From positions 1 to 51,653 of the forward strand of contig JBEIRK010000002.1 of assembly GCA_040376005.1 (NCBI GenBank): a stretch of 51,653 nucleotides of DNA. Reading direction: 5' to 3'. Origin of the DNA: Flavobacteriales bacterium. GTDB taxonomy: Bacteria; Bacteroidota; Bacteroidia; NS11-12g; UBA955. A program made the translations under genes and the position numbers. Below the pieces are notes generated by a model. That model made no database searches, was not told the DNA's origin, and saw only the letters and a list, made by a program, of their open reading frames with translations. Positions 5,788-29,000 of this stretch are shown here, piece after piece (position 1 is the stretch's first letter; each line of letters starts with the position of its first letter).

Positions 5788-8700
5788 TTATTCTATCAAA
5801 TTCCAATCGGAATCCAAATTTTCACTGCGACTTGTGGGTTTTTGTTTGCCCTCTGAGAGTCTTTCCACTTCGCTAAATACATAGGCCTTAAGCTCATTGA
5901 TGCTCACCGTGCTGTGTGATTTTAAATAATTCAATACGGCATAGGTAAAGTATCCATTTTTATAAGCGTCGCCTTCTAATGCGGCTTGGTCACCGCCTGC
6001 TGCCGAAATTATGGTGGCACCACATCCCTTAGAAACGTTTAAGAACAATTCCTGCATGAGTTCAAAGCTGTTCTTTAAACCCAGTGCGCTAGAATTCGCA
6101 GACACTACCCTGATTTTGCTGCCTTTTTCTTGATTATTTTGGGCCAATATAGCAGCCGTATCTTCCATTATTTTTACCTCCGCTTTGTCAATCTCTCCGC
6201 TGTGGCAGGCATCTATGAGCATGAGTTTCTTTCTTGCTGGAATGCTGTCTAAAAGCCATTCTAAATCGCTGTAAGGTATGCCTCCTTCTTGGGGTTGGTC
6301 AAAATTAACCTTGTAGGAAGAAAGAAAATAGTTGAAATTGCTGTCCAACAAACCATGGCCTGAATAAGAGATTATTACTTTGTCGTCTATCTGCGAGTTT
6401 GTGAGTTTCTTTTTTAATTCTAAAATATTCTCTCGTGTTACATGTTGATTGAAAAGGGTATCAATTTCAATGGCATTTCCATATTCCTTTTTCAATACAG
6501 TTGCCAAATCCCGAATGTCTTTTACCGAATATTTTAAATCTTTTCCAGCTTGCGCATAGTGGTCTATGCCTATACCGATGAAATACAGGTTGCTCTTGGG
6601 CTTATTTGTTGTAGACTGCTGAATCGGAATACTGATTCTGTATGATTCAGCGCCCTTTTGATTCATGCAAGAGAATTGTATTTTATTCTTCCCAGCAGAT
6701 AGGGGAATGGCGCAGGAAATGGTATCTATGGTGGTGTTTTGCTGGCGCAATGAAACACCTTGAACGCCGTAAATAGGCACATTGTTTACCCAAATATTAT
6801 ATCGGTCTACAGGGTACTTACTGTCGCTTACAACAAAAGTAAAAGCCTGGCTGCCTGCATTGGTTTCTGCAGGTATGGTAGACAGCTGTAATACTTTTAA
6901 TTCTGGCAAGTGAAAGTCAGCGTTGAGCATACTTTCATTGAAGCCCATTTTTTCAATTCTTTTGAGATAGGCTTTTTTATAGGCATCAATCAGACTCTGG
7001 CTAGCATATCCGAGCCTTTGTAATACAATATCAGGGCGGTTATAAAAGGGGTCAAATTGTTCTGGAAGGAAAAATTGTGTTCCCATTTTGAACCCAAAAG
7101 ACTGCATGCGTTTGCTCGACAACATGTAGTAATTGTCAGGAGTAATGGCTACGTAGTCTTCAATCCCTACCGGAATTATCGTTACCTTTAATTTGGATGA
7201 AGCGGGGTCCCAAATGCGTATACTGCCATCTATGCTGCTAGAAATGAGTATGTTTTTAATAGGGCTATAGCAAATTTTAGTAACAGAATCCAAATGTCCA
7301 ATGTGGGGAGGGCGAACCCAAATACTATCCCCACGCAGCGAGGCTGTGTAGATGTGGTTGTTTGCATCTGTAAAAGCAAATTCATTTTCACCTAGCGGGA
7401 AAATATTCTTCACCCCATTCCTAGAGGCAGTGTGCCATTCGCCATTGTGAATGTTATAGATACAAATTTCTTGCTTATTGTAGCCCGCAAGCATACTTGA
7501 ATTGAAGTAAACAAAGGTTTCAATATCTCTTTCTAAGCGTATCTTTTTATAATATATGCGACGGATATTATTGTCGCGTATTTTCCAAATAACAAATTCT
7601 CGTGTATTCACGCTGCTGAGTAAAACACTGTCATTGAGAAAGAGTATGTTGGAATTTCCATCATGGTCTTTTACATACAGTTTAGGCGATAGTTTTATTC
7701 TATTGTTCTCTTTAATCTCAGCAATTCTTAAATATTTCGGAATGAATTTATTGCGAATTCCAAAGTAGGCAAAGCGATTTGAATTGCCATTGCCAGCGAT
7801 ATGATAATACTCGCTATACGGCGCCTGGTATAGGTTTAGGGTTTGGGTAAAGAATCTGTGAATGGGCGGTTTTGCACCGAATTTAATATTGCGTATGCAT
7901 TCCACATCCTTGCCTTGTATTACCCTAAGTACATTGTCTTCTCCTGCAATGATGTGTTTGCTATCATTGAGTTCAACGATGTGATTTAAGGGATAAATGT
8001 ATTGTCTTTGACTGCTGATTTTCAATTTGGATTCTGTAATTGAAAGTGATTTAAGATATCCAATTTCATCACCAAATAGCACTTGCGATCCCTTTGAATT
8101 TGTGGCAACACTGTACAGTGGAAAGTTGAGCCCCGTGTAGCGCGCTACTTGTTGGTAGGTGCTCAATTGCCACTTAATAATAGAACGATCCGCAGAAACG
8201 GAGAAGAGGTATTGTTGGTCGCTGCTGAGAGCAATCTCATTGGCTCCAGAATTGTGCCCTTTCAGCTGTTTTACGAGTTTGTAATTTGCATCGAAGACAT
8301 AAATGTGTCCATCCTCGCAAGCGGCCAGGTACAGCTTATTTGCAGTAGAATACAGAATACTATTAAAAGGTTGGTCAAAGTAATCCGAAGTGCGTGTTTT
8401 CAGGATTTTGGCACTATTGGAGTCCTGCCAAGTGATTTTGGCTCCATCGATGCGGTATTGGATGCCATTGTGAAAGCCATTGGTTTTATTGGGTTGTCGG
8501 GGCCACATGGTGGGCGCTGAGTCTGAATAATTCATGGTAGCTATACTCAATGCTTTCTGCGTGTAATTCGCGCCGAGGTAGAGGTAGTTAGAATGCGCTG
8601 AGAATTGTAAATATTCTGGATAAAAATCAATATATTTAAATGCAATTTGACTCCCTGATTTATAGTCCCAAATAATAATTTTATAGTCTTTCCCGAAGGT

Positions 8701-8862
8701 GGCAATAAATCTGTTATCCGTGGATAGGGCTATGCGCATGATGTCCTTCGCATGGCCTTGTTGAAAGGCTACTTCCACTTTGTTGTTCTGCGCCTTTATT
8801 CCCGCATGAAAGGTGAGAAATAATATAAAAAGTAGTGCTATATTCTTAAGGGATTTGCACAT
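5788..8862 (-). CDS. Exported WD40 beta-propeller / Ig-like / caspase-like (peptidase C14) fusion protein
   Basis: Signal peptide MCKSLKNIALLFILFLTFHAGIKAQ. Several WD40-type repeats are visible (..FGKDYKIIIWD, LKGHNSGANEIALS..SADRSIIKWQ, GHLDSVTKICYSP..SSIDGSIRIWD). The C-terminal ~260 aa contain YSGHG (His codon 6355-6357) and LIDACHSG (Cys codon 6205-6207). Confidence 0.75.
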   Translation of the reverse strand: MCKSLKNIALLFILFLTFHAGIKAQNNKVEVAFQQGHAKDIMRIALSTDNRFIATFGKDYKIIIWDYKSGSQIAFKYIDFYPEYLQFSAHSNYLYLGANYTQKALSIATMNYSDSAPTMWPRQPNKTNGFHNGIQYRIDGAKITWQDSNSAKILKTRTSDYFDQPFNSILYSTANKLYLAACEDGHIYVFDANYKLVKQLKGHNSGANEIALSSDQQYLFSVSADRSIIKWQLSTYQQVARYTGLNFPLYSVATNSKGSQVLFGDEIGYLKSLSITESKLKISSQRQYIYPLNHIVELNDSKHIIAGEDNVLRVIQGKDVECIRNIKFGAKPPIHRFFTQTLNLYQAPYSEYYHIAGNGNSNRFAYFGIRNKFIPKYLRIAEIKENNRIKLSPKLYVKDHDGNSNILFLNDSVLLSSVNTREFVIWKIRDNNIRRIYYKKIRLERDIETFVYFNSSMLAGYNKQEICIYNIHNGEWHTASRNGVKNIFPLGENEFAFTDANNHIYTASLRGDSIWVRPPHIGHLDSVTKICYSPIKNILISSSIDGSIRIWDPASSKLKVTIIPVGIEDYVAITPDNYYMLSSKRMQSFGFKMGTQFFLPEQFDPFYNRPDIVLQRLGYASQSLIDAYKKAYLKRIEKMGFNESMLNADFHLPELKVLQLSTIPAETNAGSQAFTFVVSDSKYPVDRYNIWVNNVPIYGVQGVSLRQQNTTIDTISCAIPLSAGKNKIQFSCMNQKGAESYRISIPIQQSTTNKPKSNLYFIGIGIDHYAQAGKDLKYSVKDIRDLATVLKKEYGNAIEIDTLFNQHVTRENILELKKKLTNSQIDDKVIISYSGHGLLDSNFNYFLSSYKVNFDQPQEGGIPYSDLEWLLDSIPARKKLMLIDACHSGEIDKAEVKIMEDTAAILAQNNQEKGSKIRVVSANSSALGLKNSFELMQELFLNVSKGCGATIISAAGGDQAALEGDAYKNGYFTYAVLNYLKSHSTVSINELKAYVFSEVERLSEGKQKPTSRSENLDSDWNLIE

Positions 8863-9943
8863 AATAAGGGAGTAAATTATTTACCAATGCAGCGCCGTCC
8901 TCATCAAAATAGTTTATTTGAAAAGGGTCAAATGCAATGGCACCGGAATACCAATTGCCGTTAGACCGAACAATTCTTAAATGCAGGCGATAGACATAGT
9001 TGTTTTTGGATATGATTCTATGAATAGAACCCAGCATGGGTGTGCCTTTATCCATGATATCGCCATTGATTAAACGATACAGATCTGTATTGCCAATGAT
9101 GTTCAAAAAGCCACCTGTTCTAGCAGCTATGGAAGCCACCGTTAGGTTGTAATAGCCTTCAAGAAATATAAGGTTGATTTTAATGCCCATTTGCTTCGCC
9201 CGATTGATGATTTGGGTAGTGGTTGCTTTGTTTGCATTGTCAGGCGTATTGCGCACTATGGCGGTTAAATATTTGACGCTATTCTGGTTGTTTTTATCAA
9301 GTTTATCCAGGTAAGCATAAAGGGCGTCCAACAGGTTGGAACTGGCGCCTTCATAGAAATAATATTGCATCAGAATTTTGCCAGATTCTTCGTAGGTTTG
9401 GTTAAATTCATCTCTACTTGAACCAAACCAAACATGCAGTGGATTGCCAATATCTCTATCAAATGCGCCCAGGGCAATTTTATTTGAGGGTTCTGATAAG
9501 GTTTCTAAGAGAGTTTTGTTCAAAGCGCGGGTGCGCAAATTCATGATATCTGCATCATTAAAGTAGTCGCTTTGGTCTATGACTAAGGCATTTGTATAAT
9601 TGATGTTTTCAGAAAGCTGCACACGTTCTACACTGTCCACAATGATGGTGTTGTTGCCAATCACCATGCCCTTAAACGCGCTGTCAGGCAACCATTTAAG
9701 ATCAATGTTGCTGCCGGTACCTACAGCCCCAACATCCATTTGTAGAAACAATTCATTTGCACTGAAGCTTTTATAGCTCACGGAGTGTACAAAGGCATTG
9801 AAACTGCCTATGCCTACCCGTTTGCGTTGGGTTGGTGGTTCCACTTTGCTGCAGGATATGATTGTAAAGCTTAAACCAAGCAATACAAGCAGCCATCTCT
9901 GCAGGGTGATTTGGAAATAATAATTTTTGCGGCGGTCCATCAT
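8846..9943 (-). CDS. Lipoprotein with vWA-like fold and degenerate MIDAS
   Basis: Lipobox LSFTIISC. The beta-alpha pattern resembles vWA: ALVIDQSDY (DxSxS-like but degenerate), ..IALGAF.., NLLDALYAYLDKL, YLTAIVRNTPD, AKQMGIKINLIFL, IAARTGGF. The start overlaps the upstream stop (ATGA). Confidence 0.4.
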   Translation of the reverse strand: MMDRRKNYYFQITLQRWLLVLLGLSFTIISCSKVEPPTQRKRVGIGSFNAFVHSVSYKSFSANELFLQMDVGAVGTGSNIDLKWLPDSAFKGMVIGNNTIIVDSVERVQLSENINYTNALVIDQSDYFNDADIMNLRTRALNKTLLETLSEPSNKIALGAFDRDIGNPLHVWFGSSRDEFNQTYEESGKILMQYYFYEGASSNLLDALYAYLDKLDKNNQNSVKYLTAIVRNTPDNANKATTTQIINRAKQMGIKINLIFLEGYYNLTVASIAARTGGFLNIIGNTDLYRLINGDIMDKGTPMLGSIHRIISKNNYVYRLHLRIVRSNGNWYSGAIAFDPFQINYFDEDGAALVNNLLPYYVQIP

Positions 9944-10695
9944 TCTAAATAAATTTTATAGCCTTTACGCAATTTTTGGAAGTTCAACATTTTGGCCCAT
10001 ACCAAATCCAATTGATACATACGTGCGGTGGGTAGTTCACTGGCTGAGGCCAATATTCTCTGAGAATAACGCAGGCTCACATAGCGGTCATTCTTTTTCA
10101 CTCCTATACCTACAATTGCCTTTTTATATAGGCTTTCCTCATTGTAAAGGGTTCCATACATCTCTTTTTTAGTGGCATAAAGTGTCATTAAAAAAGGATA
10201 ATTATCATCATGAATTTCTGTGAATTGATTTTTGGAAAATTCAAAACCTGCAGTGGCAAAAGGACCGTTGGCTTTGGTGGTCAGCTTTACCAGTCCGATA
10301 AGTCCGAGGGAGATGGAGCCCTGCGAAACCGTCATGTCAAAATGATCTTCATCCAATGAACTGCCCAATGATGAAGGATAATACACAGGAATTTTGAGGC
10401 GTGTTGAAGCCACAAGCCACTCAGTGGTGAACATGAATCGCTTATAATCAATATTTACGTTTATACCCGTTGCAAATCCATTCAAATATTGGTTATGTAT
10501 GGGTTTCCCATCTTTTTTATTGTTGCCTGCATAATAAATAAAATAGGAACTTTTTGGGAAAATATAGGGATCTGCTAAGGTGGTATTGTGAAAGGCAGTG
10601 GTTTGAAGATTGAAGCCCAGACTCAAACGCTGCGCCTGCATATGGCCAGCTGCAATCAAAAAAACCAAGAGAATACCTAGACGTTTCATACGCAT
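9940..10695 (-). CDS. Exported hypothetical protein (beta-rich, family unknown)
   Basis: Signal peptide MRMKRLGILLVFLIAAGHMQAQ. Alternating hydrophobic and aromatic residues. Its start codon overlaps the upstream stop by 1 nt (TAATG at 10693-10697). Confidence 0.5.
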   Translation of the reverse strand: MRMKRLGILLVFLIAAGHMQAQRLSLGFNLQTTAFHNTTLADPYIFPKSSYFIYYAGNNKKDGKPIHNQYLNGFATGINVNIDYKRFMFTTEWLVASTRLKIPVYYPSSLGSSLDEDHFDMTVSQGSISLGLIGLVKLTTKANGPFATAGFEFSKNQFTEIHDDNYPFLMTLYATKKEMYGTLYNEESLYKKAIVGIGVKKNDRYVSLRYSQRILASASELPTARMYQLDLVWAKMLNFQKLRKGYKIYLE

Positions 10696-11282
10696 TAGTG
10701 CACGATTTTGTAAGTGAGTTTGAAGTTATTAAAACCGTGGTCTAACAGGGTATAAGGTATTATCTTATCATACCACGACTGCAATCCCCACTTGAGTTCC
10801 CAATCGCGGTACTGCACATCCAAAAGGTATAAAATGGTGTGCATTTCCTTTTCTTTAAATGTGGTATTGTATGAAATATTCAACTCCCAACCTCCTAAAA
10901 AGGAACCCCGAATCGTGTTATTTCCAAGGGCGAGCAATTTGAAATCGGTCATAAGATTGAATTTGTAGAACCGATTGGGATAATATTCTGCTTTTAATCC
11001 TACACCTATATTTTGTGGTAAATCATCTACCCCAATTTTAAACATATAACCCAGTCCAATACCGCTATTGATGCCTCTTTTCACATTCCCCAGATCGCGT
11101 TCTTTGTGGTCCAAATCGTATACCAAATTTGAGGAAAAATGCAGTTCATGCCAATAGGTGAGCATGGGTGCAATGCGGTTTGGCCTATAGTAAGTAAACC
11201 CAGAATCTAGTGTTTGCGTATGGGCCACATTCAGTTGCCAGAAAACCATGAAACCAATGCTTAGAAATTTTAAATATTTCAT
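10695..11282 (-). CDS. Exported hypothetical protein (beta-rich, family unknown)
   Basis: Signal peptide MKYLKFLSIGFMVFWQLNVAHTQ. 195 aa rich in Tyr, Gly and Asn. A 3-nt gap separates it from the upstream caspase gene. Confidence 0.5.
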   Translation of the reverse strand: MKYLKFLSIGFMVFWQLNVAHTQTLDSGFTYYRPNRIAPMLTYWHELHFSSNLVYDLDHKERDLGNVKRGINSGIGLGYMFKIGVDDLPQNIGVGLKAEYYPNRFYKFNLMTDFKLLALGNNTIRGSFLGGWELNISYNTTFKEKEMHTILYLLDVQYRDWELKWGLQSWYDKIIPYTLLDHGFNNFKLTYKIVH

Positions 11283-11285
11283 GCT

Positions 11286-13286
11286 TTATTCTGGGGCAAT
11301 TTCAAAAACCAAATCAAAGACGCTTCCATTGGCATTGCTAGTTTTCACAGAAAGGTTACTGCCTCTGTGCAGCTGTTTGCTGGTATGGGCGATATTTTCA
11401 AGTACGCCCAGATTTCCTCTAAAAGCTTCTGGATTTTTCATTGCAATAATATCTTCTAAATTCAGAATCTTTTTGGAGATAAAAATTTTATATATCTCGG
11501 TTCCATAGGGCTCACCCAAGCCAATTTCATAATCCGTGAATATGCGTGTTTCACCTGCTTCAATTTTTAAGTCGCGGTCATACACACCTGCTTCTCTGTT
11601 GGGTAGAATGGCCGACATTCGGCCATCGGGTTGCAGGTCAAGAATATTAATATATATAGGAAACTTGCTGGAGTTGCTTACTTTTAAGGTGAAGTAATCT
11701 TCTGTGGTGAAGGTGAGCACACCCGCGCGATAGTGTTCCATAATAACGGCCGTGTCGGGCATGCTGTTCCGAATGGGAACCAAGGCTACCTTTACTTTTA
11801 TGGTGGAGTCAGGAATGCTGATGGCCCTAAGATATTTATACTGCACATATTGTGTAAGCAGCATTTTCAGTGATTCATAATATTGGGCATCATGCGGTAT
11901 TCCTGCAAAATAGAGTCCATTATGTACCAAAAATAGAGAGTCTTTTTCTTTGCCTTTTTTCAATAGCAATTCACCGCTTCCTCGGTAAACAATTTGGGGA
12001 ATTTGGGTAAGTGCTTGTTGTATCTCCTGAATTTCTTTTTGCTGAAAGCCGATATTTTTAAACTCTTTTTTATAGGCTTGAAAAAGCAATACAACAGAAT
12101 CTATAGTATACACTGGTTCTAGCGGAAAAACCCAGGTATTGGTAGGTTGTGATTTGTACGTTTTTAGGGTTTGTATGGTTGCCTTATAAGAACTGGAGTT
12201 TACAACGATGCCAGTGTCCGCAGCTACAGCTTGTTGTGGATTTAGGGTTCCTGCGGGCATGAGCACCACTTTGGCTCCGGGGTTCAGCCCTAAAAAGCGT
12301 CCTCCTGAAATTTCAAAGAGGGTAGGGCTTAGGAATTTCTCTATTTCCACATAGGGTAGTTGAAGCTCAAACTTGCCTCCAAACAACTGACGGTCTATGC
12401 CATCGCCTTCCAATACGGGATGTTGCCCCTGAATTTTAGCATTAATTATAGATTGAATTTTGCTAAAAAAGCCCCTGTAAGTAATGCCACTTTCTAATTG
12501 TTCAATAGCCTTGCAAAAGGCATAGGAAAGCGAGCCCATGCTTTGATTGTCTTCTGTCAGTACTTCAAAGGCCAATTCTTCTGCTCTAGCTGCTGAAAAA
12601 ACCACATACGGGGCCAGGTTATTGGCATCCACTTTTGCATCCCTGAAAACCTCAGGATTCGTGGTTTTTGAGGCAGGTTTTTTAAAGTTGGGGGAAACCA
12701 AGGGTTGCACACCTCCTCTGGTTTTGTTTTGCCCACGCGAGCCGGAGCCAGAGTGGCAGGCATCTATCACTACAATCAAATCACCTGTAGGTCCGAGTAT
12801 TTCCCTTAGTTTTAGTACATGCTGTCCGAATATATCGTCGCGCAGATACTCGGCTGTATCGTTGGCGAAATTGCTGGCCTTAGCGGGTGCTACGCTGTGG
12901 TAGGTTACAATGGCCTCATCCAGTCCGTCGGGCTCATCATGGTTGTCGTCTTCTATTTGTTCCCCATGCGTAGAAAAGTGTATGAGCAGTACATCGCCAG
13001 GTTTGATGCTGCTGTATAAAGCCCTTAGGGTAGTTTCTATAGCGCTACGTGAAGCTTGGGAATCGATAAGGGTGTAGATTTGACTATCGTTAAAACCTTG
13101 ATTGCGCAGGGCAGTTTGCAAAAAGGGCACATCTTTGTTTCCAGAAATACTGCCCCATCCACCCTCTTTGGGATAGTCGCCAATAGCCACAATAAGGGCA
13201 TGCTTTGTTGAGGGCTTAGGCTGTGAAAATCCTGTTGTATAAAATACAGTGAAGGCAATACCCAGTATGAAGTGTTTAATCTTCAA
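11286..13286 (-). CDS. Exported caspase-like (peptidase C14) protein with long C-terminal beta-rich extension (DUF4384-like end)
   Basis: Signal peptide MKIKHFILGIAFTVFYTTGFSQ. Motifs HALIVAIGDY, HFSTHG (His codon 12966-12968) and VVIDACHSGSG (Cys codon 12756-12758). The C-terminal segment FTLKVSNSSKFPIYINILDLQPDGRMSAILPN resembles DUF4384, but that is my recollection only. Confidence 0.75.
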   Translation of the reverse strand: MKIKHFILGIAFTVFYTTGFSQPKPSTKHALIVAIGDYPKEGGWGSISGNKDVPFLQTALRNQGFNDSQIYTLIDSQASRSAIETTLRALYSSIKPGDVLLIHFSTHGEQIEDDNHDEPDGLDEAIVTYHSVAPAKASNFANDTAEYLRDDIFGQHVLKLREILGPTGDLIVVIDACHSGSGSRGQNKTRGGVQPLVSPNFKKPASKTTNPEVFRDAKVDANNLAPYVVFSAARAEELAFEVLTEDNQSMGSLSYAFCKAIEQLESGITYRGFFSKIQSIINAKIQGQHPVLEGDGIDRQLFGGKFELQLPYVEIEKFLSPTLFEISGGRFLGLNPGAKVVLMPAGTLNPQQAVAADTGIVVNSSSYKATIQTLKTYKSQPTNTWVFPLEPVYTIDSVVLLFQAYKKEFKNIGFQQKEIQEIQQALTQIPQIVYRGSGELLLKKGKEKDSLFLVHNGLYFAGIPHDAQYYESLKMLLTQYVQYKYLRAISIPDSTIKVKVALVPIRNSMPDTAVIMEHYRAGVLTFTTEDYFTLKVSNSSKFPIYINILDLQPDGRMSAILPNREAGVYDRDLKIEAGETRIFTDYEIGLGEPYGTEIYKIFISKKILNLEDIIAMKNPEAFRGNLGVLENIAHTSKQLHRGSNLSVKTSNANGSVFDLVFEIAPE

Positions 13287-14257
13287 TCCTTAAGAAGTTT
13301 TAACAACTGGTTGGATCCTTCTTTTATAATTTCAGTTGAATTTTCTGCGAGCTTGGTTTTAATAAATTTTTCTTTGCCTGTTTCTTTAACAGAAACTTCG
13401 ATGCGATAGCTGCCTTGGTTGTATATCTGTAACAGTTCTTTTTCTTCGTCAAAGGCAAATCCACAAGAACGCGGAATAAGAAAACTGTAGCCACCAACAG
13501 GATCGCCAGCTAGGGAATCATAATAGGACTTGTATTCTGCACTTTCTGGATTCAGGGGCATATTGCGTAGGTTTAAATTGAATTTCCCTACCAATACATT
13601 GTCATAAAAATTCCCAGATGCAGTAACATAGGATGTATAGAATCGGATTTCGAGATCCATATTCATTTTATCATCGATATTCTTGTTTCCCCAGGTCCAT
13701 GGCACATACCATTTGGTGGTTGAGGCCTTTGCTTTTGAATACACAAGATGCAGGTCTTTAATGCGCAAACGAAACACAGAACTATTTAATATTTCGTATT
13801 TTTGGGTAGTATCAATTAAAAAAGTAGCACTCAATGCAGTGGTATCTTTTTTCCGAATTTTTATATCGCGTTTTATTTCTAAGCCTTTAAATTGTATTCC
13901 AGTTGGATCAAAATGTCCTGTATTTGAAATCTGATCATAGAAGTAGAGGTCGCTAACCGATTGGCCATAGCTTGCTGTGAACTGTGATTTGTCTATGGCG
14001 ATAAGCTTGTCTACACCCATAGCAGCAAGCGACACCAATTCACCCACCCCGAATCCTCTAGAACTCGCGCCGCGCATGGCTAGGGTAGGGATTTGTTGGG
14101 TTTTAAGTGTGTGAAGACGCAAATATGAGGAATCTTCAATTACGCTAAGCCGCATGGTTTCGCCTTTGCGTTTATTGGAGTATTTTGAACCCACACAGCT
14201 ATGCAAAGCTGCGCCGAGCAGTGCTATATAAATTGTGTTTTTGAGTGTGTTTACCAT
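13283..14257 (-). CDS. Lipoprotein, family unknown (first gene of the caspase cluster)
   Basis: Lipobox LLGAALHSC. 324 aa. Its stop overlaps the next start (ATGA at 13283-13286). Confidence 0.5.
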   Translation of the reverse strand: MVNTLKNTIYIALLGAALHSCVGSKYSNKRKGETMRLSVIEDSSYLRLHTLKTQQIPTLAMRGASSRGFGVGELVSLAAMGVDKLIAIDKSQFTASYGQSVSDLYFYDQISNTGHFDPTGIQFKGLEIKRDIKIRKKDTTALSATFLIDTTQKYEILNSSVFRLRIKDLHLVYSKAKASTTKWYVPWTWGNKNIDDKMNMDLEIRFYTSYVTASGNFYDNVLVGKFNLNLRNMPLNPESAEYKSYYDSLAGDPVGGYSFLIPRSCGFAFDEEKELLQIYNQGSYRIEVSVKETGKEKFIKTKLAENSTEIIKEGSNQLLKLLKD

Positions 14258-14272
14258 AGCAGATGATAAAGT

Positions 14273-14635
14273 CTATTTGTCTTCAATAATGGCTTCCAGG
14301 GTCTCAGGATCTCGTGCTACCCAAGCCTTGTTTTGTCCAACGATGATGGGTCTTTCGAGTAGTATGGGATGTTCTATAATCGCATCAATCCATTGATCAT
14401 CAGAAAGGGATTTGCCGGCGTATAATTCCTTAAAAATATCTTCTTTTTTTCGAATCACTTCTAGGGGGTTTTTCCTGAGTAAAGTGAATACTTTTTTCAG
14501 GGTATTTTTATCTGGAACTGCTTTAAGATACTCAGTAATTTCACATGCTAAATGCGCGGATTCCAGTGCAGATTTTGCGGTTCTGCATTTGCCACATTTA
14601 GCATTGTAATAGATTATGTATACCTTATTCGGCAT
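14273..14635 (-). CDS. ArsC/Spx-family (YffB-like) thioredoxin-fold protein
   Basis: The N-terminus reads KVYIIYYNAKCGKCRTAK, and the C-terminal part has ILLERPIIV. I moved the start from the ORF-track Met (14698) to ATG 14635 (MPNKVYIIYY). The longer form would overlap the upstream permease by 74 nt. Confidence 0.65.
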   Translation of the reverse strand: MPNKVYIIYYNAKCGKCRTAKSALESAHLACEITEYLKAVPDKNTLKKVFTLLRKNPLEVIRKKEDIFKELYAGKSLSDDQWIDAIIEHPILLERPIIVGQNKAWVARDPETLEAIIEDK

Positions 14636-16082
14636 GCTTTTGATTCTTTTGTATAAACCAATAGATGGGTATTCCCAAGGCAACAATTCCCAGACCAATG
14701 GAGGCTGTAAGTGTTTTGAACCACAAGATATCTAAGCCCACATATAGGGCAATGGCTATAAAAAGAAGGGGAACCCAAGGATAGGCCAATACTTTGTATG
14801 GACGTTCAGCTTCAGGCTCTTTTTTGCGCAATACGATAAGCGCAGCAGCAGTAATGATATAGAAAATTAGGGCTGCAAAAATGCAGTAGTCAAGCAATTG
14901 GCCATAAGTACCCGAAAGGCAAAGCACAGAAGCCCAAACGCATTGAATCCACAAGGCGGAGGCGGGTACATTATTTTTGTTTAATTGTGCTGCTTTTTTG
15001 AAGAACAATCCATCGTCTGCCATAGCCTTGTAGAGTCTTGCACCTGCGAGAATAAGGCCATTGTTGCAGCCAAAAGTTGAAATCATAATGAGTGCAGCCA
15101 TCAACAATTCACCGTTGCTGCCTAAGATCATTGACGCAGCTGCAGAGCCTACACGGTCATTTACGGCATGTGAAATGCCTTGTGCTTCAATACTTGGAAA
15201 TATACCACCCTGAAGCGGTAACAGGCTCATATACGCCACATTGGCAAGTACATAAATTACGGTAACGATTAAGGTACCGGCAAACAAGCTTTTTGGAATG
15301 TTTTTCGAAGGGTTTTCGATATCACCAGCAATAAAGGTTACGTTATTCCAGGCGTCACTGCTGAACAGTGAACCCACCATAGCGATACCGAGAGCACCTG
15401 CAATGCCCCAGCCACCTATGGGTTGCCAGCTGCCTGTGGTAGCGTTCTCGGATGTTACGTATGTTGCGGCACTCCATGCCTCTTTCCAGTTGTTGCTGAA
15501 AAAATCAAATTGAGATGCGAAGTAAAAACCGCAGAGTATAAGACCGAAAAGGGCTAGCAATTTGGTAAATGTGAAAATCCTCTGAATCCATTTGGCTTCC
15601 TGCACTCCACGGCTATTTACCCATGTTAAAAACAGTACCAACAAAATGGCAACAATTTTACCGCGGGTAAAGTTGTAGGCATCAGCACCTGAACCTATGC
15701 TAAACAGGATGCCATCCTTGCCATCGCCTAGGGCGGGAACAAACACGCCTAGGTACTTGGCGAAAGCCATAGCTACAGCGGCAATTACACCGGTTTGAAT
15801 AACGGTGAATACCGACCAACCATAGACAAATCCCGCGAGTTTCCCGAAGGCGCGTTGGATATACATGTATTGGCCACCTGCCTTTGGCATCATGCCTGCC
15901 AGTTCGCTGTATGTAAGTGCACCAAGCAGTGTGAAAAGTCCTGAGACAAGCCAAGCCACGAGCACCCATCCTGCAGAACCGAGCAATCGGCTCATATCGG
16001 CAGCTACGATAAAAATACCGCTGCCAATCATACTGCCAGACACAATTAAAGTTGCGTCTAGGGCAGTGAGTTTTTTATTCAT
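14625..16082 (-). CDS. APC-superfamily amino acid permease
   Basis: 485 aa with ~12 predicted TM helices and an N-terminus typical of APC transporters (LDATLIVSGSMIGSGIF). Confidence 0.8.
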   Translation of the reverse strand: MNKKLTALDATLIVSGSMIGSGIFIVAADMSRLLGSAGWVLVAWLVSGLFTLLGALTYSELAGMMPKAGGQYMYIQRAFGKLAGFVYGWSVFTVIQTGVIAAVAMAFAKYLGVFVPALGDGKDGILFSIGSGADAYNFTRGKIVAILLVLFLTWVNSRGVQEAKWIQRIFTFTKLLALFGLILCGFYFASQFDFFSNNWKEAWSAATYVTSENATTGSWQPIGGWGIAGALGIAMVGSLFSSDAWNNVTFIAGDIENPSKNIPKSLFAGTLIVTVIYVLANVAYMSLLPLQGGIFPSIEAQGISHAVNDRVGSAAASMILGSNGELLMAALIMISTFGCNNGLILAGARLYKAMADDGLFFKKAAQLNKNNVPASALWIQCVWASVLCLSGTYGQLLDYCIFAALIFYIITAAALIVLRKKEPEAERPYKVLAYPWVPLLFIAIALYVGLDILWFKTLTASIGLGIVALGIPIYWFIQKNQKHAE

Positions 16083-16086
16083 AAAA

Positions 16087-17751
16087 TTAGTCAGAGTTAA
16101 GTATGGTATGGTTTGGGTCAGAGGACTTTTGCATAATTCCCAAGGTAAGAATTACGACGCCTATGGCCGACCAAATGGACAATTCAAGCCAGACAGGGAA
16201 ATGAACAAAATAGTTAATGCCGAGGGTAAGCGCAATCATGCTCACGCCTACCAAGAATGGTGTTTTATTCATTTTAAAATTGCTGGCATGGTGCAATTTA
16301 CTTCTGTTAATACTGTAACCAAAATAAATCAAAAAGCCCAAATCAAGCCAAATTACCAAACGCAACCAGTTGGTCCAGCCCAATCCCAAGATCATGAGGA
16401 AACACACAACCATTCCGAGAATAGGCAACAAAGGAACCAAGGGGGTTTTGAATTTGCGTGGCAAATCAGGATCAGTTTTGCGCAGAATAATTACTGCTGC
16501 ACACACAAGTATGAAGGCAAATAAGGTTCCAATACTGGTCATGTCACCTACGATATCACCAGGTACAAATGCAGCAAACAAACCTACAATGACCATGATA
16601 ATTAGGTTCGCTTTGTATGGGGTTTTAAACTTAGGGTGAATGGCGCTAAAGAAGTTTGGCAATAAACCATCGTTACCCATACTGTAAAACACCCTAGATT
16701 GCCCCAAAAGCATAACCAAAATTACACTGCTGAAACCCGCAAGAATGGCTATAGTTACGAAATTGCCCAACCAATGAAAACCGGGCATGTATTTATTGAT
16801 GGCAAAGGCTACAGAAGCTTCTTTACCTGTGGTTCTGAAATCTTCTACTGTGGCCACACCGGTAAGTACGTGTGCAAATAAAATGTAAAGAATGGTGCAA
16901 ATACCTAGCGAGCCCAAAATGCCCCAAGGCATGTCTTTGCCTGGGTTTTTTGCCTCTTGTGCAGCAGTACTTACGGCATCAAATCCAATAAAGGCGAAGA
17001 ATACCACACCGGCAGCACCTACTATGCCCCAAAATCCTCCAAAATGGTGTGAAATACCCTGGGGATCCACATAGGTAGTAGGCTCTGGTATATATGGGGT
17101 GTGGTTGGCAGGCTGCATAAAGCCCCAGCCAATACTGATGATGAGTAGTACAATAGCTACTTTCACCACAACAATGAGGTTGTTAAAGAAAGCCGACTCT
17201 TTGGTACCGCGAATCAACAGAAGACTCAACACGGTTACAATGCCAAAGGCAGGCAAATTCAAGATACCACGCACCCCGCCTGCAGATTTTTCGAATGGGC
17301 TATGGCACCATTCATATGCGACGGCTTTGACGTGAAAGACATTGACCAACAGGTTATTTAAGTATTCACTCCAAGCGATGCCCACAGTTGCGGCACCTAC
17401 AGCATACTCCAAGACCAAGTCCCAACCAATAATCCATGCAAAAAGCTCACCCATTGTGGCATAGCTATAGGTGTATGCACTGCCCGCAATAGGAATTGAG
17501 GATGAAAGTTCGGCATAGCAAAGGCCGGCTAATGCACAACCAATGGCGGCCAATATAAAGCCATACGTAACAGAGGGGCCCGCATTCTGCGCAGCAGCAG
17601 CAGCGGTTCTAACGAACAATCCGGCACCAATAATGGCGCCAATACCTAAGCCAATAAGACTTCTGCGACTTAAGGTTTGTTTGAGTTGGTTGGTGCCGGC
17701 TACGGCATCCGCATACAGCGTGTGTATTGGTTTTTTAGTAAACAATCCCAT
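16087..17751 (-). CDS. APC-superfamily amino acid permease (cationic-amino-acid-transporter-like, extra C-terminal TM helices)
   Basis: 554 aa. It has the GIGAIIGAGLFV motif and a polytopic profile. A 4-nt gap separates it from the downstream permease. Confidence 0.8.
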   Translation of the reverse strand: MGLFTKKPIHTLYADAVAGTNQLKQTLSRRSLIGLGIGAIIGAGLFVRTAAAAAQNAGPSVTYGFILAAIGCALAGLCYAELSSSIPIAGSAYTYSYATMGELFAWIIGWDLVLEYAVGAATVGIAWSEYLNNLLVNVFHVKAVAYEWCHSPFEKSAGGVRGILNLPAFGIVTVLSLLLIRGTKESAFFNNLIVVVKVAIVLLIISIGWGFMQPANHTPYIPEPTTYVDPQGISHHFGGFWGIVGAAGVVFFAFIGFDAVSTAAQEAKNPGKDMPWGILGSLGICTILYILFAHVLTGVATVEDFRTTGKEASVAFAINKYMPGFHWLGNFVTIAILAGFSSVILVMLLGQSRVFYSMGNDGLLPNFFSAIHPKFKTPYKANLIIMVIVGLFAAFVPGDIVGDMTSIGTLFAFILVCAAVIILRKTDPDLPRKFKTPLVPLLPILGMVVCFLMILGLGWTNWLRLVIWLDLGFLIYFGYSINRSKLHHASNFKMNKTPFLVGVSMIALTLGINYFVHFPVWLELSIWSAIGVVILTLGIMQKSSDPNHTILNSD

Positions 17752-24087: not shown

Positions 24088-24303
24088 GATTATAACAGTT
24101 GCTCAAGCTTCACATTCCTGAAGTAACTTGAAAAGAAAGCAGAGAAAGAGCAAAAAAGCAAAGGTTTTGATTTGAGATCTTTAAAAACACTTTTTGTATT
24201 TGCAAATAAGAGGGTTGAGGTAAAATAGCACATTTGATTTTGTGTAAATTTGCTTTTTTGATTTATTTTGTTATCTTGCATTTGCAAAATATTTACCCAA
24301 AAT

Positions 24304-25977
24304 ATGAAAATCATGAATCCACAATCAGTTCCAACTTGGAACAACAGTTGCAAGGGATGGCTTTTGCTGTCTATTGCCATTTTAAGTTGTGTGACTTCCT
24401 TAAAAGCTTGGAATAAGGTGTGGGAAAGCACTGGTACCAATGAGGAGGGCACCTGCCGAAGCCCAATAATTTGCCGTAATTTGACAAATGATGGTATTGT
24501 TACCGCCAGTTATTGGCTTTGTCCGAATTTGACTTCATTTAATAAATATGAAATGAAATTCCTTGAAACGGATGATAATGGGAATGATGTTAATCGTAGT
24601 GAACATTATTTCGAATATGGAAATTCATCGCCTGCGCCATTTAATAATTATGTTCAGCGTTTTGAGCTTCATCGCATTATAGCGGATGGAGCCAATGATC
24701 GTTATTTGGTATTGGCAACTGCACACAATCCAGCCAATGTAAGCATGGTTTCTTCTTATATTATAGAATTGGACAACGCTTTGGCCTTTGTTTCCGTTCA
24801 CTTGTTAAGTGGTTATTATCAATACTGGGATATGGCCATTGCGCCTCTAAGTGGAGACATTATTACCTGCGGTTTTAACAGTTCCAATTTAGGACTAACT
24901 TGCAGTACACGAGTGGCCGTAATTATGGTGATGAATAGTTCATTTACTGCTCAAAATACCTATGAATTTCCTGCTTCTGTCCCTTCAGCAGGCAATGTGC
25001 CTCGTTTTGACAATGCAAAATGCCTTAAAATATGGGATGATGGAACTAATGAATATGTAGCAGTTGCTGGAAATTTAACCGCAGAAATAAACAGAATGCC
25101 AGGTTTGGAATATTACCCTAAGGTTTTTATGGCAAGGTTTACACTCAGTTCTGGCGCTTTAACGCAAACATGGATGAAACAATTGGATGCCAGTACGACC
25201 GAGCAAATGATACCTGCAGATTTATTAATCGACGTAAATGAAGAATTAATCACAACCGTAGGCAGTTCGTCTACCGATTTAAGTGCAGAGGAGGCCCGAA
25301 TATGGCAAGTTGATTTTAGTGGAAATGGGGTATTAGAAGGCACTTGGGAAGGAATAGGCATTACTTATCCCTATACATTTAAAGTGCACAATGTAAGGCC
25401 CTATTCAATAGCTATATTAAACAACGGAAATTATAGAATTACAGGCTGGGCAGATAATTATTATTTTACTTCACCTGGCGTAAGCAACAGATACAATTTT
25501 TTTTCTGTTGATTTTGATCCTGTGAACCAAACCTTTGGAGATATAGATGTTTATTTGGGCAATAGCAACGGTTATTCAACTATATTTGGAACTGGATTTT
25601 ATGCAGTAGATGCGCAGCTTAGCTATTATTATAATTCCACTACTTGTTACTTAGCGTCTTACCATACGCCCCAATTTCATGTAACATGGTATGATGGTGA
25701 GAATCAGCAGAGTGCTTGGGCATGGCCACAAATCCCGAATCCTTCTACAAACAATAATCAACATCAACTTAGAATACGATGTACCATAGCTGGTACCGGC
25801 GATGGCAGCAATTGTGATGCTTTTGCCTCAGAAACGGACATTAGTTTGAATACGAATCCAAATACTTCTAACCCGGGCAATTGGGGTTCAGTGGATAACC
25901 AAGCGATTGGAGTGCCTAGAGACGACGTGCATAATAGACCAATGACTGGAAGTGCTTGCAGTGGGTCTTATAACTAA
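24304..25977 (+). CDS. Exported hypothetical protein (family unknown, no T9SS CTD seen)
   Basis: Start chosen at ATG 24304 (MKIMNPQ...). Hydrophobic signal segment GWLLLSIAILSCVTSLKA. ~557 aa rich in Asn, Tyr and Trp. It lies 41 nt upstream of the 1366-aa T9SS cargo gene. Confidence 0.5.
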   Translation: MKIMNPQSVPTWNNSCKGWLLLSIAILSCVTSLKAWNKVWESTGTNEEGTCRSPIICRNLTNDGIVTASYWLCPNLTSFNKYEMKFLETDDNGNDVNRSEHYFEYGNSSPAPFNNYVQRFELHRIIADGANDRYLVLATAHNPANVSMVSSYIIELDNALAFVSVHLLSGYYQYWDMAIAPLSGDIITCGFNSSNLGLTCSTRVAVIMVMNSSFTAQNTYEFPASVPSAGNVPRFDNAKCLKIWDDGTNEYVAVAGNLTAEINRMPGLEYYPKVFMARFTLSSGALTQTWMKQLDASTTEQMIPADLLIDVNEELITTVGSSSTDLSAEEARIWQVDFSGNGVLEGTWEGIGITYPYTFKVHNVRPYSIAILNNGNYRITGWADNYYFTSPGVSNRYNFFSVDFDPVNQTFGDIDVYLGNSNGYSTIFGTGFYAVDAQLSYYYNSTTCYLASYHTPQFHVTWYDGENQQSAWAWPQIPNPSTNNNQHQLRIRCTIAGTGDGSNCDAFASETDISLNTNPNTSNPGNWGSVDNQAIGVPRDDVHNRPMTGSACSGSYN

Positions 25978-26018: not shown

Positions 26019-29000
26019 ATGGGAAATAACATTTTTGTATTTGTTTTATTGAGTGTTATTTCATTTCATAAACTCGTGGGGCAATATGTTTACTCTGTAT
26101 CTTATCCAAGCCTTAATACTATTGTTCCATCTGGTAACGGTGAACAGAAAAGTGTACAAGTTTATCTTTATATTTCTGGAAAAGCAAATACTGCTTATAA
26201 ATTATACTACAGCGGTTCCAAGGATACTTTTATTGGGAAATTAAGCAGCAAGGGGTGCGATACAATTACTATAGATTCTGCCACAAAAATGACTTCCTTT
26301 GTGTATGTAAAGCCAAATATTCCTGCGAGTTTTACAAATTATCTCCCAAATAGAGTCCTGTGTTTTAATTCTGCAGCACCTGCAAATGTTCAGGGCTTTT
26401 TAGAGTATCAGACAGAACCGTGGGATGGTGGTAAAAATAGTTTGAAAAGTAGAGTTCAACAGTTAGAGTTGAGTGGCTACGCAAATTGCAATAATAATTT
26501 TAGCCCAAATTACCATGGCAGTGTGTTTCCATGTTTTGCCGGAAATGCCCTAACATTAAAATTTAAGAAACACACATTTCTCTCGGTTAATTCATATACT
26601 CCAATACTATTTAAGAATTATCCATGGTGGTTTTATGGCAGTCGTCAAATACTGCAGGTAATCTGCAACAGCGATTCGGCAATTGTGGAAATTACAGGAA
26701 GTGTTGATTTGCTAAATGGACAAGCGAAGGGTAAGCCGGATACGCAGATTATTAAGAAGGGGCAGATGCTATACTTGGGTGCCGACAAAGGCAATATGAG
26801 TGGTACCCAAGTGCGCACCCTGAATTGCTCGGATGTGCGTGTGTACAGTGGAGCCTATCATAGCCCCAGAGAAATGCTATGGGAGAAACAGTATAACAAG
26901 CCGGATTCTCCATATACAGAGTCGGATGCCATGCTCCAAGCCATTTATTATTCCGAAATTAGACCTTCAACAGAATACGGGTATAGGTACCTAATACCCC
27001 AATATAAAGTTATGGGTGATACACTTGCATGGTGGTACATGAATATGGCTAAAGACCTAGGGCAACCCAAATGGGGTTTGGATGGGATAAAACCGGGGTA
27101 TTCCAGTGTGCAGGTAATGGCCTTGCAAAACAATACAAAGGTTAAGATTAATGGGCGCAACCGCACCTTAAAGAACAAGGGTGATTTCTTTGGAGATAGT
27201 GTGCAATGGGTGGGTTACATAGAATCTGACAAGCCCGTAAATGCAGTGTGGTACTGCGCGCCCATGTGCGGGCATGGTAGTTATATGCTGCCCGCATTGG
27301 ATATAGATCGAATATCCAAAGATACCCAGTCATTGCCGTGCTTTTGGGGTTACAACAGCAAAATACGCAGACCTTGGAAGGGGCCTGTAGCCTACGTATT
27401 TGCACCAGGCTCTGGAAAGCCGGAGGTTTGGATCAATGGCCGTAAAAAAAAGTTAGAACAACGCTGCCCATGGATGGGTGAACAATGGTATTTTGATACC
27501 ATTGTGTTGTTGCATAATTTCAACAACCGCATACACAGCAAAAATGGTTGTATGGGGGTATACTCCTTTGAGTTTTACGGATTGAACTCGCAGCGGGCTT
27601 TTGTATTCGGCACCGATGCAGAAACGCCGCAACTGCGTCTGCGCATCAATGGGCAGTGGAATATGAGCCCTTTAGAGCCCATGCAATTATGCCAAAATAC
27701 AGCAGCAAAGTTAGAAGCGGTTACTGCCTGGTATACTCCCAAAACTGTTCAATGGCTGCTACCGGGCGGCAAAACAGATACGGGCAGCACAATAAACTTT
27801 ATTTTTAGAGATACGGGTTTACAAACCATTACCATTATCAGTGAAAGTCCGGCAGCGGATTGTGATATACAGCGCCATTATGACACACTTCATGGTAAGG
27901 TGTATGTTTATAGTATACCCAAATTTTCATTGGGCACAGACACCACCCTTTGCCAAGGCACAGCCATAACACTGTACAGCAGCCGCAGCGAGCTGCCTCG
28001 TCCAGTGTGGCGCGAAAAGGATAGTTTATTATGCCAAAGTTGTGATAGCTTAAAAATACAAGCCACTAGGACAAGAACGATAACGGGCAGTGTAAGCAAG
28101 GTAGGTTGTGCAGTGCAGCGCGATACGATAGTGGTGCGGACATTGGATAGTTTGCAAATTAAAATAGACTTGCCACAAGGCTTTGAATACTGTTTTGGCC
28201 AAGTCGTGCAAGCCAAGCTGCTTATAAACAATACGACCAATATAGAAGGCTTGTACCATGTGAATTGGAACTTGGCCGCTGGCTCAGATTCGGGCTTGCT
28301 CACCCATGCAGATAGCAGCAAATGGCTGAGAGTAGAAGTATCAGACCGCTGTGGCACGATTTATAAAGACAGTGCTTATATCAAGGTGTATGCACCCTTG
28401 TCTCTATTTTTAAATACGGATACAACACTGTGTTACAACAGCAAATACAAACCCCAATTTGCAGTGTTTGGTGGGCACTTAGACAGCATTTACACGCTGA
28501 GTTGGAACGGGAAGCCGGGTATCCCTGACTTTGAAACTCAGAGAGATACCCAAATACTGGCTATATTGACAGATGGATGCAGCGTTGCAGACACTCAACG
28601 TATAGCGATAAAGGTACACCCAAAGCTGGAAATAGCGCTAAAAACGCTTCCAGATACTTGGTGCTATAGGCAATCGCTGCCAATAATAGCCACGGCCATG
28701 GGTGGAGATACAAATCAGTACGCTTGGTCCTTGTATAGCAGCCTTGCGAAACTAGACACAACAACAGGCCCCGCCTTTGCAACAACCCAAACGAGCAAGA
28801 ATGCAGGGTATTATACCTTAAAACTTTACAACCGCTGTGGCAGCGCAGATACAACAGTCAAAAGTCAATGGCTCAAATACATTCACATCAGCCTGCAACA
28901 CGGGGATACACTTTGTCCGGGAATAGCAGATACATTGCAGGGAGATTTGGGTGCTTCTGGAACCTTATACGCCAAGCGAGGGGGTTTTGTAGATAGCCTA

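Follow-up and report, generated by a model that had tools for sequence, protein, structure and literature searches.

A six-gene cluster of a Flavobacteriales bacterium reads as the join of two independently recurring, predicted envelope caspase modules

The window analysed here, a 51,653-nucleotide stretch of DNA from a Flavobacteriales bacterium (assembly GCA_040376005.1, contig JBEIRK010000002.1, positions 1-51,653, forward strand), contains at positions 5788-14257 a cluster of six minus-strand open reading frames (ORFs), which we call G1 to G6 in the order of transcription. G1 (13283-14257) encodes an orphan lipoprotein of 324 residues; G2 (11286-13286), which opens with a TTG start codon, a predicted exported protein of 666 residues with a Peptidase_C14, i.e. 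caspase-type, domain and a C-terminal DUF4384; G3 (10695-11282) a 195-residue beta-rich orphan, likewise predicted to be exported; G4 (9940-10695) a protein of 251 residues that models as a small outer-membrane beta-barrel; G5 (8846-9943) a lipoprotein of 365 residues with a putative, divergent von Willebrand factor A (vWA) domain; and G6 (5788-8862) a predicted exported protein of 1024 residues combining WD40 repeats with a second Peptidase_C14 domain. An earlier annotation made from the letters of this DNA (hereafter the sequence-only reading) had described six tightly packed ORFs on the same strand, and these lie exactly where it had placed them. Among the junctions that it listed, the TAATG shared by G3 and G4, the ATGA at 9940-9943 between G4 and G5, the 17-nucleotide overlap of G5 and G6 and the 3-nucleotide gap between G2 and G3 (TAA AGC ATG) were all read again in the sequence, whereas the supposed ATGA at 13283-13286 is a TTGA, because the start codon of G2 is TTG.

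Signals for export were judged by eye and from family alignments. G1 and G5 carry lipoboxes by inspection (...ALHSC and ...TIISC, respectively), whose Cys is kept in 100% of 83 homologues for G1 (Cys21, 14195-14197) and is invariant across the G5 family (Cys31, 9851-9853). The N-termini of G2, G3, G4 and G6 are short, first charged and then hydrophobic, and end right before a Gln (...A/S/T-Q), this ...AQ-type end being retained in the G3 and G4 families and in the WD40-caspases related to G6 that follow G5-type genes at other loci. The signal peptide or lipobox that had been proposed for every product is therefore visible by inspection and conserved across the families, and all six products look extracytoplasmic. 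In G1 and G5 the lipid-modified Cys is followed by basic and not by acidic residues; in the light of the Bacteroidota lipoprotein export signal, this suggests that both lipoproteins face the periplasm. One could argue that these hydrophobic segments are membrane anchors or artefacts and that the caspases are cytoplasmic, as in the known conflict systems, the more so as export was called here by eye and from family alignments and earlier surveys were unable to separate N-terminal transmembrane helices from signal peptides (PMC3501461). However, two of the families keep the lipobox Cys without exception, the hydrophobic stretches of the other four proteins and of their homologues stop before Gln as they would at a signal-peptidase site, the barrel fold predicted for G4 requires passage to the outer membrane, and neither an NTPase nor a cytoplasmic effector family is found nearby, so that we hold a cytoplasmic location to be extremely improbable.

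Pfam searches matched G2 to Peptidase_C14 (PF00656) at 2.5e-16 (60.5 bits, cut-off 21.4) and to DUF4384 at 1e-6, and G6 to WD40 at 1e-22 and to Peptidase_C14 at 2.1e-16 (60.7 bits). On the minus strand, the caspase domain of G2 spans about 12405-13205, with His107 at 12966-12968 and Cys177 at 12756-12758, and its DUF4384 lies at 11469-11711; in G6 the WD40 region covers about 7183-8775 and the caspase domain about 5812-6573, with His836 at 6355-6357 and Cys886 at 6205-6207. When 158 caspase domains from related loci were compared, both dyads fell in shared, conserved columns (His in 150 and Cys in 149 of the 158), as did the Asp two residues before the Cys, which is D175 in G2 and D884 in G6 (149 of 158). 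The two Peptidase_C14 cores with intact His/Cys dyads noticed in the sequence-only reading are thus upheld by profile matches as well as by the position of the catalytic residues. In addition, the His of G2 aligns with the GHG motif of the yeast metacaspase Yca1, the motif that carries the catalytic His of that enzyme. The D-x-C-H-S-G motif is of metacaspase type and is associated with Arg/Lys specificity, and the Asp at Cys-2 is linked in metacaspase structures to the same preference for a basic P1 residue. Orthocaspases have been reported to cleave after basic residues (PMC6426788), and G2 and G6, judging from these motifs, probably cut after Arg or Lys. The caspase domains of G2 and G6 are only about 23% identical to each other, and a phmmer search of the PDB with the one of G6 gave no match.

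Against NCBIfam NF047832, 'caspase, EACC1-associated type', G6 scores 60.5 and G2 24.5 bits, below the curated cut-off of 140 bits; no adjacent EACC1 effector was found, and no neighbour matches any NCBIfam or PADLOC family. Assignment to a known defence system was rejected, the PADLOC matches being a generic 'caspase' and one weak repeat match, with nothing for G1, G3, G4 or G5. Pfam and NCBIfam searches found no NTPase in the six proteins, and none was seen in the flanking genes; they also gave no type IX secretion system (T9SS) C-terminal domain (Por_Secre_tail or type B) in any of the six at E<=1. Both absences had been noted in the sequence-only reading, and the contrast drawn at the time with cytoplasmic, NTPase-driven conflict systems that combine caspase, WD40 and vWA domains is one that we can endorse: the cluster is NTPase-free and its products look extracytoplasmic.

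Whether the six genes form one system is a question of their recurrence. A scan of GTDB species genomes with G1 returned at least 94 relatives, from which 79 loci were taken, and in 77 of these G1 was recovered by ORF calling. All six genes recur in one close relative only (L091/L092), with identities of 90% for G1, 71% for G2, 80% for G3, 77% for G4, 75% for G5 and 73% for G6, and with the neighbours of the window: permease, permease and ArsC on one side, DAHP synthase and BamH on the other. Since this is a close relative with the cluster in the same chromosomal position, the recurrence reflects vertical inheritance. A further locus with the same synteny (L004, G1 at 72% identity) has G1, G2 and a WD40-caspase of 1174 residues, without G3, G4 and G5, and these three genes are absent from all 77 G1 loci of the GTDB set. 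On the other hand, G3, G4, G5 and a WD40-caspase gene stand in fixed order at six independent loci (L008, L009, L010, L011, L093 and a further JGI contig), all of them lacking G1 and G2, and the 17-nucleotide overlap between G5 and the WD40-caspase gene is repeated in L008, L010, L093 and the JGI contig. A metagenome scan with the G5 family returned two loci only. G6 itself is collinear over its full length (residues ~8-1022, 39-45% identity) only with the WD40-caspases that follow G5 at such loci, whereas those found with G1 match it only over residues ~520-1022. On the strength of this split recurrence and of the collinearity of G6, the window is read as a module A (G1-G2) followed by a module B (G3-G6). 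Module A consists of the G1 lipoprotein gene, its constant partner, followed by G2, and elsewhere has one to five further exported caspases with WD40 or tetratricopeptide repeat (TPR) domains; module B comprises four genes in fixed order, G3, G4, G5 and G6, the G6 gene overlapping the end of G5. Most likely, module B replaced here a WD40-caspase of the module A type that is still present in L004.

That the six proteins work together as one envelope machine, with an operon of their own, would agree with junctions that are without exception overlaps or a 3-nucleotide gap, with the same genes in the same order at 71-90% identity in L091/L092, and with predicted export of six products out of six. 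We nevertheless consider it very unlikely, since the one other complete set is that of a close relative at the same position and so speaks of vertical inheritance, the syntenic L004 and the 77 GTDB G1 loci do without G3-G5, the six module B loci do without G1 or G2, and G6 is orthologous to the WD40-caspases of module B and not to those of module A. As a general system the six-gene unit put forward in the sequence-only reading is largely refuted. Two observations on module B loci may be recorded here: in L008 (11058-14186) the WD40-caspase is split into three ORFs of 661, 73 and 297 residues, by decay or by an assembly frameshift, and one or two Lipocalin_4 genes lie directly upstream of G3 in L008 (8195-8632), L093 (8453-9328) and the JGI contig, with none in the window.

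Carriers of G1 are mostly metagenome-assembled genomes of Chitinophagaceae/Chitinophagales, with some Bacteroidales, Sphingobacteriales, Flavobacteriales and Balneolaceae, and include two cultured strains, Terrimonas ferruginea DSM 30193 (L044, NZ_KE384401.1) and Flaviaesturariibacter aridisoli (L060, NZ_SKFH01000008.1). A caspase gene adjoins G1 in 49 of the 77 loci and lies within 5 kb of it in 64, the number of caspase genes per locus ranging from 0 to 5. The density of caspase genes per 100 kb falls 60-fold with distance from G1, from 24.6 at 0-2.5 kb to 0.4 at 7.5-10 kb. G2-like proteins are encoded in 48 of 85 G1 loci, in many cases by a same-strand gene that overlaps G1 or starts within ~80 nucleotides downstream. 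Nearly all caspases partnered with G1 have signal-peptide-like N-termini, and their architectures comprise DUF4384 and WD40 fusions, an N-terminal caspase with TPR, TPR with a C-terminal caspase and, in Bacteroidales, a lectin-like N-terminal region.

Other genes were seen in these neighbourhoods. In Chitinophagaceae, CHASE2 membrane proteins, an exported trypsin-like peptidase and a Tle1-like/DUF2235 hydrolase occur near G1 (L044, L060, L032, L045, L063, L064), and the gene for the hydrolase sometimes overlaps the start of G1. A family of ~740 residues combines an N-terminal pseudo-caspase with an intact C-terminal caspase domain (L021 11027-13258, L052 13674-15884, L055 13739-15952, L066 4964-7294, L068 4222-6597, L079 5170-7296, L033 11357-13024); in the pseudo-caspase the His is replaced by F, C, Q or L, the Cys by Gly and the Asp by Glu. 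An exported protein of ~127 residues with a Tyr/Trp/Cys-rich C-terminus (...CYYWYYYCDGWGYCYWYKAWYYC) and no Pfam match is encoded at L021 13422-13805, and its family is present in L033, L048, L052, L055, L068 and L073. Finally, L006 and L014 (9000-10966) hold G1 homologues (48% identity) without a nearby caspase gene, and therefore the link between G1 and caspases is not universal; in L006 an unannotated 318-residue gene directly upstream of the G1 homologue could be a paralogue.

The G1 protein has no match in Pfam, NCBIfam, PADLOC or PHROGs. Its AlphaFold2 model (AF2; predicted local distance difference test, pLDDT, of 75) is beta-rich, with a loop at residues 55-85 modelled below a pLDDT of 50, and this loop contains an Arg67-Gly68 pair (14054-14059) of which R67 is kept in 95% and G68 in 91% of the 83 homologues. 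No fold could be assigned, the profile search against the PDB being empty, the best Foldseek hit in the PDB having an E-value of 0.013 and a template-modelling (TM) score <0.2, and BFVD hits likewise staying at TM <0.2. Many invariant polar residues are spread over the large beta-rich fold, and sequence identities are consistently higher for G1 than for the neighbouring proteases (90 versus 71% in L091, 72 versus 53% in L004 and 61 versus 40% in L001). These features bear on the proposal that G1, and perhaps G5, are inhibitor or immunity lipoproteins that guard the envelope against the cell's own exported caspases or against neighbouring toxins such as the Tle1-like hydrolase. A single G1 stands beside several paralogous caspases, whose conserved active sites one inhibitor could cover, and in 6 of 85 loci G1 comes directly after the Tle1-like (PF09994) gene, with an overlap or a very short spacer, in the position typical for periplasmic immunity lipoproteins. 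Nonetheless, an inhibitor or immunity protein of a conflict system that evolves far more slowly than the neighbouring proteases would be unusual, the invariant polar residues extend across the fold, and G1 is found with the Tle1-like gene far less often than with caspases; we therefore regard this role as unlikely.

The partners in module B are equally foreign to the databases, the window proteins G3, G4 and G5 being without a match in Pfam, NCBIfam, PADLOC or PHROGs. For the families of four of the cluster's six proteins there is thus no model in Pfam, NCBIfam or PADLOC, and profile searches assigned none of the proteins that had been singled out as orphans to a well-characterised pathway. 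G3 precedes G4 in every module B locus and belongs to a tiny family, for which 1.84 billion proteins yielded only 24 representative clusters. Among the four orphan families its alternating-hydrophobicity signal is the strongest, and one of its 23 members has a weak OMP_b-brl match; from its sequence, G3 is likely a small outer-membrane beta-barrel. The AF2 model of G4, built with 12 homologues (pLDDT 72.6), has long meandering strands, and Foldseek placed it in the PDB next to Legionella porin III (E 7e-5, probability 1.00), followed by OmpA, PagL, Ail, NspA and OmpX, nearly all top matches being outer-membrane beta-barrels; G4 accordingly models as a small barrel of this kind. Support from a curated outer-membrane protein family (PF13505) is confined to weak OMP_b-brl matches in 3 of the 12 members (best 0.0023), with none for the window protein, and sequence searches against solved structures returned no match for G3 or G4. 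That the two are paralogues was rejected, as hhalign gave a probability of 8.8% and covered the signal peptides alone. The C-terminal 13 residues of G4, LNFQKLRKGYKIYL(E/D), at 9943-9981, are basic, near-invariant in the 12 sequences and modelled as disordered.

For G5, 14 of 21 family members match Pfam VWA (PF00092, best 2.9e-6), the family profile finds vWA chains of collagen VI and TRAP in the PDB with weak E-values of 0.5-2, and inspection reveals a conserved metal ion-dependent adhesion site (MIDAS)-like set of D123, S125, S/T201 and D235, in which the third Ser of DxSxS is not conserved. Because of these family-level matches, of the weak matches to vWA structures and of the partly degenerate MIDAS, G5 is taken as a divergent vWA lipoprotein; the name vWA-like lipoprotein that the sequence-only reading had given it holds for the lipobox and for the family, and not for the window protein by a match of its own.

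The surroundings of the cluster are of a housekeeping nature and include panC, a glycosyltransferase, BamH/DUF4270, DAHP synthase, ArsC, two permeases, PMT_2, an aminotransferase and PNPase. On the downstream side, G6 converges with the DAHP-synthase gene at a distance of 19 nucleotides. On the upstream side, G1 is closely preceded on the minus strand by an ArsC-family gene and, before that, by two genes for amino-acid permeases (14273-17751); the ArsC-family gene (14273-14634, Pfam ArsC 8.8e-15) lies outside both modules, its stop codon is 15 nucleotides from the ATG of G1, and its own ATG overlaps the end of the permease gene. This packing implies that the transcription unit may start upstream of G1, so that the cluster may be no self-contained operon and ArsC may be co-transcribed with both modules. 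Scans for consensus promoters and terminators gave counts equal to the shuffled expectation, and no Bacteroidetes-type -7 motif (TAnnTTTG) occurs within 500 nucleotides upstream of G1. The permease-ArsC order ahead of G1 is also found in L004 and L091.

With two amino-acid permease genes directly upstream at minimal spacing, and with housekeeping genes and no mobile elements around, it could be proposed that G2 and G6 are ordinary periplasmic peptidases for turnover or peptide scavenging, merely co-transcribed with unrelated envelope proteins. This we hold to be distinctly unlikely, since the permease linkage is confined to the clade of the window (the window, L004 and L091), whereas the linkages of G1 with caspases and of G3-G4-G5 with a caspase hold across many unrelated contexts, and since WD40 and TPR domains, paralogue arrays and tandem pseudo-caspase domains point to regulated, target-specific proteolysis. 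The cluster has a GC content of 40.6% against 43.1% in the rest of the window, a dip of 2.5 points which makes it the lowest-GC 8.5-kb stretch there, and the GC content at third codon positions (GC3) of its genes, 0.37-0.45, remains inside the spread of the neighbouring genes (0.443 ± 0.042). The hint of foreign origin that had been seen in spot GC counts is hence not sustained, the dip being small, GC3 normal and the flanks free of mobile-element or phage genes. A phage or mobile origin was rejected on the same grounds and for want of PHROG matches. Elsewhere in the window, a plus-strand ORF of 569 residues (24268-25977) has no Pfam match and an unusually low GC3 of 0.32; it is followed at 26019-30119 (plus strand) by a 1366-residue protein with IgGFc_binding and PKD domains, probably a surface protein. 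The only RNA gene detected by Rfam in the window is a tRNA-Arg (CCT) at 1106-1180 on the minus strand, far from the cluster.

Taken together, the reading that we favour, with a little more confidence than doubt, is that the cluster is a lineage-specific, head-to-tail join of two independently recurring envelope caspase modules, whose partner proteins would tether the proteases or be their targets. Anatomy and gene association are established here; the mechanism is one that we infer. Proteases of the G2 and G6 type, carrying the metacaspase-type D-x-C-H-S-G motif, would be exported by the Sec pathway, act in the periplasm and cut after Arg or Lys, while their WD40, DUF4384 or TPR domains may bind a ligand or a substrate. 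The conserved partners would tether the proteases at the inner face of the outer membrane, serve as their substrates, or both. Candidate elements for contact or cleavage are, in G1, the loop with Arg67-Gly68 and, in G4, the periplasmic tail, which is basic and ends in an acidic residue; through this acidic C-terminus G4 could also bind G5 at its MIDAS site. The 'periplasmic or outer-membrane proteolytic machine' of the sequence-only reading is, as far as sequence can tell, a reasonable functional guess.

Several points count against this picture of two joined modules. The tight packing of the six genes, kept in L091/L092, is compatible with a cooperation of the modules in this lineage, and the ArsC and permease genes that lie upstream may belong to the transcription unit as well. 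In 12 of the 77 G1 loci the available sequence holds no caspase. The signal peptides are called from inspection and from family conservation. The fold of G1 is unrecognisable, and roles as anchor, substrate, inhibitor or enzyme are consequently all possible for it, and G5 of the window itself reaches no Pfam VWA threshold (none at E<=0.1).

What bacterial caspase homologues do for the cell has long been in question, and current mechanistic work has dealt nearly exclusively with cytoplasmic defence driven by NTPases or sensors. The modules described here add a large Bacteroidota set, the G1 family being found in 94 or more GTDB species, in which predicted exported caspases are coupled to dedicated, slowly evolving partners that are probably of the outer membrane, and the four unannotated partner families provide concrete, testable protease-partner pairs, including those of the two cultured module A strains. 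Should the partners prove to be substrates or effectors, control gated by proteolysis would reach beyond the cytoplasm into the envelope. In the searchable literature we found no description of the G1, G3, G4 and G5 families or of exported modules combining caspase, WD40, vWA and outer-membrane components, and exported caspases are not discussed in a large survey of conflict systems.

The nearest relatives of the proteases are the prokaryotic metacaspases or orthocaspases (MEROPS C14B-like; Asplund-Samuelsson et al. 2012, PMC3501461), with which they share the p20-type domain, the His/Cys dyad and the D-x-C-H-S-G motif. The domains most often joined to prokaryotic metacaspases are WD40 and TPR, many of these enzymes begin with a helix that is probably a signal peptide, and operons with several metacaspases occur in Bacteroidetes (PMC3501461); fusions to WD40 or TPR, several caspase genes per Bacteroidetes operon and frequent N-terminal hydrophobic segments are likewise found in our set. 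Unlike the metacaspases of that survey, however, the proteases of the cluster are tied to dedicated envelope partners, and the surveys report neither such families nor such envelope modules.

The vWA-MoxR ternary systems and the Bat (aerotolerance) operon of Bacteroides resemble the cluster in that a vWA protein is encoded together with beta-propeller or repeat proteins, and the VMAP/iSTAND systems share caspase-type effectors with it. In contrast to vWA-MoxR and Bat, no MoxR AAA+ ATPase or DUF58 protein is encoded in or near the cluster, and the vWA-like protein is here a lipoprotein. TolB-Pal and the PorE protein of the T9SS (TPR/WD40/OmpA_C, PMC7192894) combine a periplasmic beta-propeller with outer-membrane lipoprotein or barrel components, as the cluster does, and thereby offer a Bacteroidota precedent for WD40 domains that work on the inner side of the outer membrane; they differ from it in lacking any sequence relationship, and the cluster has no OmpA_C peptidoglycan-binding domain and has its propeller fused to a protease.

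Finally, the modules recall the cytoplasmic protease-effector modules (PMC12642450, PMC7159879), in which a caspase- or trypsin-like protease is paired with gasdermin, Pepco, EACC1, MBL or an alpha/beta-hydrolase, and site-specific cleavage acts on an adjacent latent effector (PMC12642450). Unlike in these, every component here bears a predicted export signal, NTPases of the STAND, MoxR or any other type are absent, and the partners match no gasdermin, Pepco, EACC1 or PADLOC model, the cleavage site being a candidate only. One could go further and speculate that modules A and B are the extracytoplasmic counterparts of the caspase-activated gasdermin, Pepco and EACC1 modules, with the partner cleaved at Arg67-Gly68 of G1 or in the tail of G4. 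Exported sensor-caspases would then detect an envelope insult or an invader through their WD40, TPR or DUF4384 domains, and cleavage of the partner would unleash or dismantle an envelope activity, in an NTPase-free periplasmic pathway of signalling or suicide; drawn by analogy, this extension seems to us unlikely. The likeness itself lies in the arrangement. In both cases a sensor-fused protease is encoded beside a small conserved partner, and the coupling of protease gene and partner gene is seen here in the adjacency of G1 and caspase genes and in the conserved overlap of G5 and G6 at independent loci. Many variable proteases accompany a constant partner, a flexible segment of which holds the candidate cleavage site, and one slow-evolving partner set among many fast-diverging sensor-proteases resembles the logic of the cytoplasmic protease-effector modules, placed by analogy in the envelope.

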